IMG/VR virus record: IMGVR_UViG_2698536369_000016
Direction: 5' to 3' (one strand)
From: a virus
Lineage: Duplodnaviria > Heunggongvirae > Uroviricota > Caudoviricetes
Length of the DNA: 5,095 bases
Shown here: in pieces, positions 1,986 to 2,764 of the stretch
Position numbering within the stretch: the stretch's first letter is position 1
Layout of the letters: every line of letters begins with the position of its first letter
Notes under the pieces: generated by a model
What the model saw: the letters and a program-made list of their open reading frames with translations, nothing else
Told to the model about the DNA's origin: nothing
The model's database searches: none
Translations under genes and position numbers: made by a program

Positions 1986-2300
1986 TTAGCATTTTTTTGA
2001 CCGCGCGTTTCCGGACGTATTCTGTTCTCCTGTCCCTTTATATCGTCGGAATACCCGCCGCTCTTCAAATCCCATTCCCAACTCAGAATGTAGTCTGTTG
2101 ACCGCTTGTTTTATTTCGGTCAGGTTCACCGGTGAAACCGGAGTCCGGCGCGCCTTACGCAAACACTCTGCTCGTTTCTGTGCCGCCACTTTTCTTTTCT
2201 GGTCATCACTTAGCTGTACCATCACTTTTGCCCATCGTTCAGCTGCTCTCCGGTACAGTCCTTTTTTCTCCAGACATTCTGCCACGTGATCATGTAGCAT
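1986..2300 (-). CDS. PerC-family transcriptional regulator (Pch-like)
   Basis: 104 aa, MLHDHVAECLEKKGLYRRAAERWAKVM...; the LE.KGL(Y/W)RRAA.RW motif and the size match the PerC/Pch family as I recall it. ATG at 2300-2298 with GGAGG 7 nt upstream. Confidence 0.55.
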   Translation of the reverse strand: MLHDHVAECLEKKGLYRRAAERWAKVMVQLSDDQKRKVAAQKRAECLRKARRTPVSPVNLTEIKQAVNRLHSELGMGFEERRVFRRYKGTGEQNTSGNARSKKC

Positions 2301-2764
2301 AAGTGACCTCCGATTATCTACAGACTGCCATCCTGAATTTACCTTCCCTTAATGAAATAACAATAAAAAACAAACCACGCAAAAACAATAAAACAACACA
2401 CAAAAAAACTAAATAATAAACAAAAATAATCACCTTATTTTATTATTTTTTGAGGGAGCAATTACTGAACAAAAAACGCTGACTATATACTCAAAACCAA
2501 ACAACTATTCTGCCAATCAGGTATCATGGCAACACACGGAATTACCGTGTTTTTGCCTTCTCTGCCCATACAATACGGGCATATACTTCATTCTCTATTG
2601 TAATATTTCTATCCATGTGCCCCACTCCATTTACCTGTAAATAATATTCAAAATATTTATCACAGAAATCGTTTTTGGCCATGAACTGAGCACACTATAA
2701 AGTCCGGAACTGACTCTTTGTTAAATTACCTTAACGTTACCAGTAACACCTTCATAACAAAACA
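2301..2764. promoter_or_regulatory. 464-bp AT-rich non-coding region, probable leader/promoter of the PerC-like gene
   Basis: No ORF of 60 aa or more on either strand. It includes an ~80-nt tract (about 2351-2430) that is almost purely A+C on the plus strand, and several AT-rich runs. It lies upstream, on the minus strand, of the PerC-like gene. Confidence 0.4.
2534..2555 (+). terminator. small terminator-like hairpin
   Basis: Stem ACACGG (2534-2539) / CCGTGT (2545-2550), 5-nt loop, followed by TTTTG. No obvious upstream plus-strand gene. Confidence 0.2.

Follow-up and report, generated by a model that had tools for sequence, protein, structure and literature searches.

Which regulator is encoded by the small gene that lies beside cos in a 5,095-nucleotide stretch of caudoviral DNA (IMG/VR record IMGVR_UViG_2698536369_000016; the whole stretch is called the window below), and what does the long AT-rich region ahead of it do? 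The open reading frame (ORF) is very probably pchA, a PerC-family gene of the group 1 PchABC type carried as a moron in a lambdoid prophage, and the 464 bp upstream of it are this gene's own non-coding control region.

Identity of the 104-amino-acid protein

The ORF carries the motif KGLYRRAAERW at residues 13 to 23, on which the first-pass annotation had based its assignment to the PerC family. The Pfam profile PerC (PF06069) confirms that assignment: it matches the ORF at 149.3 bits, where the cut-off is 22.6, with an E value of 3.8e-44, and positions 1 to 89 of its 90 positions align with ORF residues 1 to 89. NCBIfam contained no model for the Pch protein, and a PDB sequence search with the Pch protein returned no solved relative.

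We fetched the five pch genes from the annotated genome of E. coli O157:H7 Sakai and aligned their products with the window protein. Identity to the window protein is 100% for PchA (ECs_1091), 99% for PchB, and 98% for PchC, but only 31% for PchD and 40% for PchE. Nineteen columns do not vary among the six aligned sequences (the window protein and PchA to PchE), and all of them are intact here; conserved core residues present in the window protein include G14, R17, R18, A19, R22, W23, C46, and P54, among others. The window protein also has the 15-residue C-terminal tail TGEQNTSGNARSKKC, which is missing from PchD and PchE. Comparison with the pchA to pchE products had been proposed as a way to judge whether conserved residues are intact, and it places this protein as the prototype active group 1 variant, the opposite of an inactive placement.

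PchD (ECs_1388) and PchE (ECs_1588) belong to the same family but are 89 to 90 amino acids long and lie in other contexts, SpLE1 for the former and, for the latter, the untypable prophage Sp7, where the gene is part of a polycistronic transcript. Neither has much influence on the LEE; PchE acts instead to repress curli and to induce flagella. That the gene in the window is instead an inactive or divergent PerC paralogue of the PchD or PchE kind, with no part in LEE activation, draws on nothing beyond the known existence of such paralogues and has practically no chance of being right, and we rejected it on the Sakai Pch alignment: the protein is identical to PchA and, at 104 amino acids, includes the tail that PchD and PchE lack.

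A more distant relative is PerC of the EPEC EAF-type plasmid (perABC operon), a member of the same Pfam family; both it and PchA are called LEE1/ler activators (PMC4456613, PMC4764244). The plasmid protein shares about 46% identity with the window protein over 84% of the length, is 89 amino acids long without the C-terminal tail, and is plasmid-borne, without flanking phage lysis and cos genes.

The exact protein sequence occurs on at least 1,000 contigs, and one source names it "PchABC family transcriptional regulator." Among 5,426 complete E. coli genomes, 662 contain the locus, defined as at least 80% of positions 1280-3300.

The lambdoid junction and the bor slot

The window is a junction between the right arm and the left arm of a lambdoid prophage. 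Its genes follow a single strand axis in the order holin, R, Rz/Rz1, pch, ylcI, cosN, Nu1, and A, and the features are as follows.

4789-4974, minus strand: P21-type holin
3568-4101, minus strand: R lysozyme
2765-3232, minus strand: Rz spanin gene (Pfam Phage_lysis, E 1.2e-48; RefSeq annotation at identical loci)
2827-3012, minus strand: Rz1, embedded in Rz
about 1828-2786, no strand assigned: pch module, which takes the place of the bor module of lambda-like phages
1986-2300, minus strand: pchA coding sequence (CDS), 104 amino acids, PerC family, group 1 PchABC regulator
1920-1950, both strands: predicted bidirectional intrinsic terminator
1680-1904, plus strand: YlcI-like/DUF3950 gene, convergent with pchA
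1461-1472, no strand assigned: cosN
768-1277, minus strand: Nu1
113-853, minus strand: 5' part of the large terminase gene

The same lysis-pch-cos gene order occurs in the Sakai prophages Sp11 and Sp14, and the position of the gene, in a lambdoid prophage and directly 3' of the lysis cassette, is the context of group 1 pch genes. Sakai pchA in Sp4 (ECs_1091), pchB in Sp11 (ECs_2182), and pchC in Sp14 (ECs_2737) encode near-identical proteins. They also have in common with the window the 464- to 465-bp upstream region, the Shine-Dalgarno sequence, the DicF target, the terminator, and the position directly 3' of Rz/Rz1. Rz, a gap of about 465 bp, and pch form the same layout in Sp4, Sp11, and Sp14. 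Across the 931 nt from the 3' end of Rz to the terminator, the window differs from the Sakai pchA locus by two substitutions and one homopolymer T. One of these substitutions and the T fall in the upstream 464 bp, where the window has a run of seven T in place of the eight found in Sakai.

The limits of the inserted unit were apparent in blastn comparisons. Against phage 434 and Sakai Sp8, the window aligned at 1428/1473-1814/1827 and again at 2787-3169, with nothing aligned between these blocks; similarity to lambda likewise ends at 1814-1827 and restarts at 2787. In lambda, 434, and Sp8, the interval corresponding to 1828-2786 holds bor on the opposite strand, and no bor gene was found in the window. 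The cosN sequence, AGGTCGCCGCCC, is the reverse complement of the 12-nt lambda cohesive end GGGCGGCGACCT; it is separated from the pchA stop codon by 513 bp, and the end of the linear phage 434 genome falls at the position equivalent to 1473. The description of the gene as a moron beside cos, in the slot that lambda gives to bor and with bor itself absent, agrees with the similarity gap against 434, lambda, and Sp8 and with the short distance to cosN.

At the other end of the gene, the sequence AAAAAGCGAC-loop-GUCGCUUUUU is predicted to form a terminator hairpin with a U-run on both strands. The minus-strand hairpin, which would serve pchA, has an energy of -14.7 kcal/mol (z -3.6), and its plus-strand counterpart, which would serve the convergent ylcI-like gene, one of -11.9 kcal/mol (z -4.1). 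Because the slot between conserved phage genes has been replaced and the unit has its own predicted terminator, it has the anatomy of a moron; judged by this sequence organization, the pch unit is a self-contained accessory gene between Rz/Rz1 and cos.

The bor moron of lambda, 434, and Sakai Sp8 is the natural comparison, as it occupies the same slot beside cos, from Rz to the DUF3950/ylcI gene. Like pchA, bor is accessory, and it is expressed in the lysogen. Its product is an outer-membrane lipoprotein unrelated to PchA, and bor reads towards Rz, against the late operon, whereas pchA is co-oriented with Rz and the late operon. SOS induces the group 1 pch genes (PMC6265319). Given the shared orientation, late-operon read-through into pchA probably explains this inducibility.

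In the window copy, the holin gene and the large terminase gene are both cut by IS629-type ends. Sakai Sp4 differs from the window in having an IS629 on the 3' side of pch, where the window keeps ylcI, cos, and Nu1. The window copy lies in a prophage fragment bounded by the IS629-type ends and probably severed by them from the late promoter, a point slightly beyond routine annotation; since the element cuts the holin gene, late-promoter read-through has probably been lost in this copy.

The upstream region and its asymmetric tract

Upstream of pchA, the first gene met on this strand is Rz. Its stop codon occupies 2765-2767, and the gap between the two genes (2301-2764) is therefore exactly 464 bp. 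The gap has a G+C content of 33.4%, compared with 46.0% in the window overall, and drops to 18 to 24% in 100-nt windows across 2350-2499. We divide the gap into three segments, listed here with two elements relevant to translation.

2435-2764, minus strand: distal upstream region, conserved and non-coding, less variable than Rz
2355-2434, minus strand: strand-asymmetric tract, rich in A+C when read on the plus strand and in T/G, with almost no C, when read on the coding strand
2301-2354, minus strand: proximal upstream segment, conserved, with the Shine-Dalgarno region, three GGA motifs, and a weak -35/-10-like pair
2307-2311, minus strand: Shine-Dalgarno sequence GGAGG, 6 nt 5' of the ATG, read from the sequence
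2196-2222, minus strand: predicted DicF pairing site within the CDS, +79 to +105

The first-pass annotation had noted within the gap a tract of about 80 nt that is nearly pure A+C on the plus strand. The plus-strand counts for 2355-2434 are 55 A, 16 C, 8 T, and 1 G in 80 nt, or 89% A+C; "nearly pure" was therefore slightly generous, while the near absence of G from the plus strand is exact. The tract is the best A+C segment, and its segment score of 44 exceeds all 2,000 shuffles of the window (maximum, 28) and all 5,000 shuffles of the gap (maximum, 35).

Gap length was compared among 85 copies from fetched loci, and sequence variation across 58 distinct haplotypes. The gap length is 462 to 465 bp in about 79 of the 80 copies with a recognizable Rz end, the single 422-bp gap being a deletion variant. 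Among the 58 haplotypes the pch CDS is nearly invariant, with five synonymous and two non-synonymous changes; the distal stretch 2481-2720 is more conserved than Rz, and the proximal segment 2301-2354 has few variable columns. Variability peaks at 2321-2480, that is, in the tract, and the tract is what separates pchA-, pchB-, and pchC-type alleles. Its run of T at 2407-2413 has seven T here, eight in 51 of 86 copies, and six in one. This concentration of pch variation in the asymmetric tract, next to a CDS that is almost frozen, goes slightly beyond what routine annotation of the locus provides.

More distant relatives separate what is general in the tract from what is particular to these alleles. 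Upstream of the homologues in E. albertii (91% identity) and Escherichia sp. (77% identity), the proximal segment is partly kept and the G+C content is 21 to 28%, but the G/T purity of the coding strand is lost. T-richness of the coding strand is common to all alleles, and the near absence of C from it is specific to pchA, pchB, and pchC.

We favor a role at the level of DNA, since no other part of the locus is as poorly conserved as the tract and its strand purity is lost in distant homologues. We infer that the tract is AT-rich promoter-proximal DNA, acting either as a surface for a nucleoid-type or feast-famine regulator or as an UP-like element; tract differences would then tune pchA, pchB, and pchC differently. 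Nucleoid-protein silencing, one of the mechanisms suggested by the first-pass annotation, is compatible with base composition (33% G+C in the gap and 18 to 24% in the tract, against 46% in the window), which would suit H-NS binding. Matches to the high-affinity H-NS motif (TCGATAAATT-like) number 7 against 6.9 expected, with one in the gap, and are not enriched. A-tract phasing is weak, the amplitude of AA/TT periodicity being 0.008 at a spacing of 10.5 bp and 0.085 at one of 11 bp. An imperfect 30-bp palindrome is present at 2528-2557 (-16.7 kcal/mol, z -4.4).

How the tract acts depends on where transcription begins. In PMC4456613 and PMC7279287 the region upstream of pchA is taken to be a working promoter under regulation. 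On the coding strand, the top-scoring sigma-70-like match combines a -35 element TTGCCA at 2527-2532 with a -10 element AATAGT at 2504-2509 (the only match there at 9/12 consensus positions; position weight matrix [PWM] score 9.9, against 7.8 for the runner-up). Promoter-like sites in the scan are not above chance, with 3 found and 4.1 in shuffles, and their consensus matches are weak. If transcription starts close to pchA, the tract is promoter or UP-region DNA; if 2504-2532 is a real promoter, the tract is transcribed within a 5' untranslated region (UTR) of about 195 nt.

The latter case underlies a possible though unlikely account, in which transcription starts near 2497 from the promoter at 2504-2532 and the unstructured, U/G-rich tract in the leader is a platform for post-transcriptional control. 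Candidate partners are Hfq or ribosomal protein S1 on U-rich RNA, CsrA at the three GGA motifs beside the Shine-Dalgarno sequence, and an undiscovered sRNA. In its favor, the match at 2504-2532 is the best on the coding strand and falls within conserved sequence; single-sequence and consensus folds alike leave the tract single-stranded; and GGA motifs flank or overlap the Shine-Dalgarno sequence and reappear in the homologues of E. albertii and Escherichia sp., even though the sequence there has changed. However, the promoter match is weak and overall no better than chance, its -10 hexamer is altered in the pchB-type allele, and the proposed platform is the very segment that is least conserved and that loses its G/T purity in distant homologues. 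The region has no Rfam match and essentially no covariation, and DicF, the only documented sRNA input, pairs within the CDS. We consider it improbable that the U/G-rich tract, within a 5' UTR of about 195 nt, is a landing pad for Hfq, S1, CsrA, or an sRNA and that its divergence, including the T7/T8 difference, sets the expression levels of pchA, pchB, and pchC. The first-pass description of the 464 bp as a leader, in the sense of a transcribed 5' UTR, is not supported; the sigma-70-like matches are all weak.

A structured leader is not supported either, since the tract is wholly unpaired in the consensus fold and in the single-sequence fold as well, and covariation is essentially absent (one compensatory pair among 63). 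We do not think that the tract is a structured RNA element. A search of the gap against Rfam gave no family match at E values up to 1. In the corresponding scan of the whole window, a match to the rimP leader at 3413-3488 lies on a terminator hairpin and was rejected as chance.

Read from the other strand, the tract could be a Rho-utilization site that, together with a hairpin and T-run at 2528-2560, would stop plus-strand transcripts antisense to pchA before they reach the lysis genes. The plus-strand tract does contain a single G and 16 C in 80 nt, and at 2528-2556 the plus strand is predicted to form a hairpin of -14.8 kcal/mol with UUUUU directly after it. With 55 A in 80 nt, though, the tract is unlike a typical C-rich rut site; ylcI and pchA are already separated by a strong bidirectional terminator, the hairpin has uncompensated mismatches in pchB- and pchC-type alleles, and the plus-strand transcripts are hypothetical. 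An antisense insulator of this kind is very unlikely.

We give even less credence to a product encoded in the gap itself, whether a 46-amino-acid protein or an sRNA of about 100 nt that would be transcribed on the plus strand, with its promoter at 2417-2446 and its terminal hairpin at 2534-2550. The only ORF in the gap (2542-2682, minus strand; 46 amino acids) is called hypothetical in some GenBank records and is without RefSeq annotation. It has no Shine-Dalgarno sequence, and comparison of the 58 haplotypes reveals 23 non-synonymous and 4 synonymous substitutions in it, with no excess at third positions, a frameshift in two haplotypes, and loss of both start and stop in one. This pattern of substitutions, frameshifts, and start loss indicates that the ORF evolves as non-coding DNA; it is also missing from the ribosome-profiling catalogue of small genes in Sakai, and we rejected it as a gene. 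The earlier statement that pchA is preceded by 464 bp of AT-rich, non-coding DNA is accordingly correct in length, composition, and coding status. For the sRNA, a plus-strand promoter-like site matching at 9 of 12 positions and a terminator-like hairpin can be found. That promoter, however, sits inside the hypervariable tract and is lost in pchB-type alleles, the candidate has no Rfam match and is not among the prophage sRNAs of PMC4104026, and we rejected it because promoter and hairpin are not conserved. The known prophage sRNAs Pas, AgvB, AsxR, Esr41, and EcOnc are encoded elsewhere, at the Q/pR' moron site or in SpLE1, and not between Rz and cos.

Control of pchA and its place in virulence

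Full ler/LEE expression requires PchA, PchB, and PchC but not PchD or PchE (PMC6265319, PMC4456613), and Pch turns on LEE1 by lowering its occupancy by H-NS and StpA (PMC4764244). In published work, PchA acts by binding at the promoter region of LEE1 (ler). LEE1/ler activation is known for the identical Sakai protein and, by this identity, should carry over to PchA of the window, which would relieve silencing by H-NS, StpA, and Hha at the LEE1 (ler) promoter and so switch on the type III secretion island.

Several regulators converge on pchA. LrhA is described as a direct activator of pchA and pchB (PMC4456613); activation of pchA by Lrp with butyrate, and via LeuO, is likewise described (PMC4456613, PMC7279287). 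NtrC and sigma-S act through PchA, and pchA depends on NtrC/sigma-S (PMC10714755). According to these publications, the inputs from LrhA, from Lrp and butyrate, from LeuO, and from NtrC/sigma-S are received at the pchA promoter region. Earlier publications already cover the gene, where it sits in the prophage, and many of its regulators, and the window holds no new biology.

Translation offers a further level of control. As described in PMC7769764 and PMC7873438, the ribosome-binding site of pchA is hidden through base-pairing to the CDS, and DicF frees it. In our predicted folds, GUCACUU beside the Shine-Dalgarno sequence pairs with segments of the CDS, consistent with the published sequestration. 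DicF was not found near dicB in Sakai Sp14; it was located in prophage Sp4 (Rfam RF00039, 76.9 bits), and nucleotides 1 to 24 of that copy were used for duplex prediction. The predicted duplex at the CDS site has an energy of -27.6 kcal/mol, against -18.0 +/- 2.3 kcal/mol for 300 dinucleotide shuffles, or about 4 standard deviations below, although the best of the 300 shuffles went beyond it, to -29.1 kcal/mol. Within the site, UAAGUGA is complementary to UCACUUA in the start-codon region. The in silico features are therefore those of a DicF-controlled mRNA, namely a CDS segment complementary both to the 5' region of DicF and to the Shine-Dalgarno/start region. Pairing of the Shine-Dalgarno/start region with the CDS would hold pchA translation down, and DicF pairing at about +79 to +105 would lift this block.

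The heavy regulation anticipated for this gene is documented in the literature. Two forms proposed for it are not supported: the tract is predicted to be unpaired, unlike a structured leader, and DicF pairs in the CDS rather than in a targeted leader.

PchA stands near the top of the cascade for attaching-and-effacing virulence in EHEC. Finding pchA in a sequence therefore flags its host as a likely LEE-positive or STEC-lineage strain.

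Sequence motifs upstream of pchA

Upstream of pchA (1986-2300, minus strand), we found an imperfect palindrome that overlaps the best sigma-70-like -35 hexamer:

2528-2557: imperfect 30-bp palindrome, GGCAACACACGGAATTACCGTGTTTTTGCC

The pchA-type alleles (56 of the 80 copies) have a perfect palindrome core; the pchB- and pchC-type alleles carry one uncompensated mismatch in it. The palindrome is a candidate protein-binding site that may bear on the differences in regulation published for pchA and pchB. Closer to the gene, the T-run at 2407-2413, within the A+C-rich tract, is polymorphic in length: the coding strand has seven T residues here, eight in 51 of 86 copies, and six in a single copy. 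Three GGA motifs precede the pchA start codon (2301-2360), one of them within the Shine-Dalgarno sequence. GGA motifs also occur at comparable positions, in divergent flanking sequence, in the homologues of E. albertii and Escherichia sp. (loci L090, 2440-2500, and L091, 100-155). By analogy, this pattern is reminiscent of a CsrA-bound leader.

Additional sequence in the lysis cassette

In phage 434, the lysis genes R and Rz abut, with annotated spans overlapping by 4 nt, whereas in the window they are separated by approximately 330 bp (3233-3567). R is likewise adjacent to Rz in Sakai prophage Sp8, unlike the arrangement here, and Sakai Sp11 and Sp14 carry different inserts at this junction. 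The interval contains two features:

3236-3349, minus strand: small ORF, 37 aa in the RefSeq annotation
3478-3436, minus strand: 15-bp hairpin with a U-rich tail (-21.8 kcal/mol; z, -3.5)

This interval resembles either another moron-like insert, the second here, or a terminator internal to the lysis cassette. Between holin and R, the opposite strand carries an ORF:

4219-4533, plus strand: 104-aa ORF

RefSeq annotates a shorter hypothetical protein at this position, and the Sakai counterpart is ECs_1097; the ORF has no match in Pfam or NCBIfam.

Insertion sequences and rearrangement around pchA

Both ends of the window are formed by insertion sequence ends:

1-115 and 4981-5095: IS629/IS1203-type element, its first 115 nt as identical inverted copies

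These copies are 97.4% identical to Sakai IS629. Because they truncate both flanking genes, those for the large terminase and the holin (which retains 61 of 68 codons), this pchA copy resides on a 4.9-kb prophage fragment separated from Q/pR'. The whole window was found in one piece in no complete E. coli genome of our collection. In Sakai Sp4 (locus L003, 33366-36376), the block of holin, R, Rz and pchA is encoded on one strand and Q and the terminase genes on the other. The block is flanked by IS629 and ISEc8 and therefore seems to have been inverted. Rearrangements mediated by IS elements thus occur around pchA at more than one locus.
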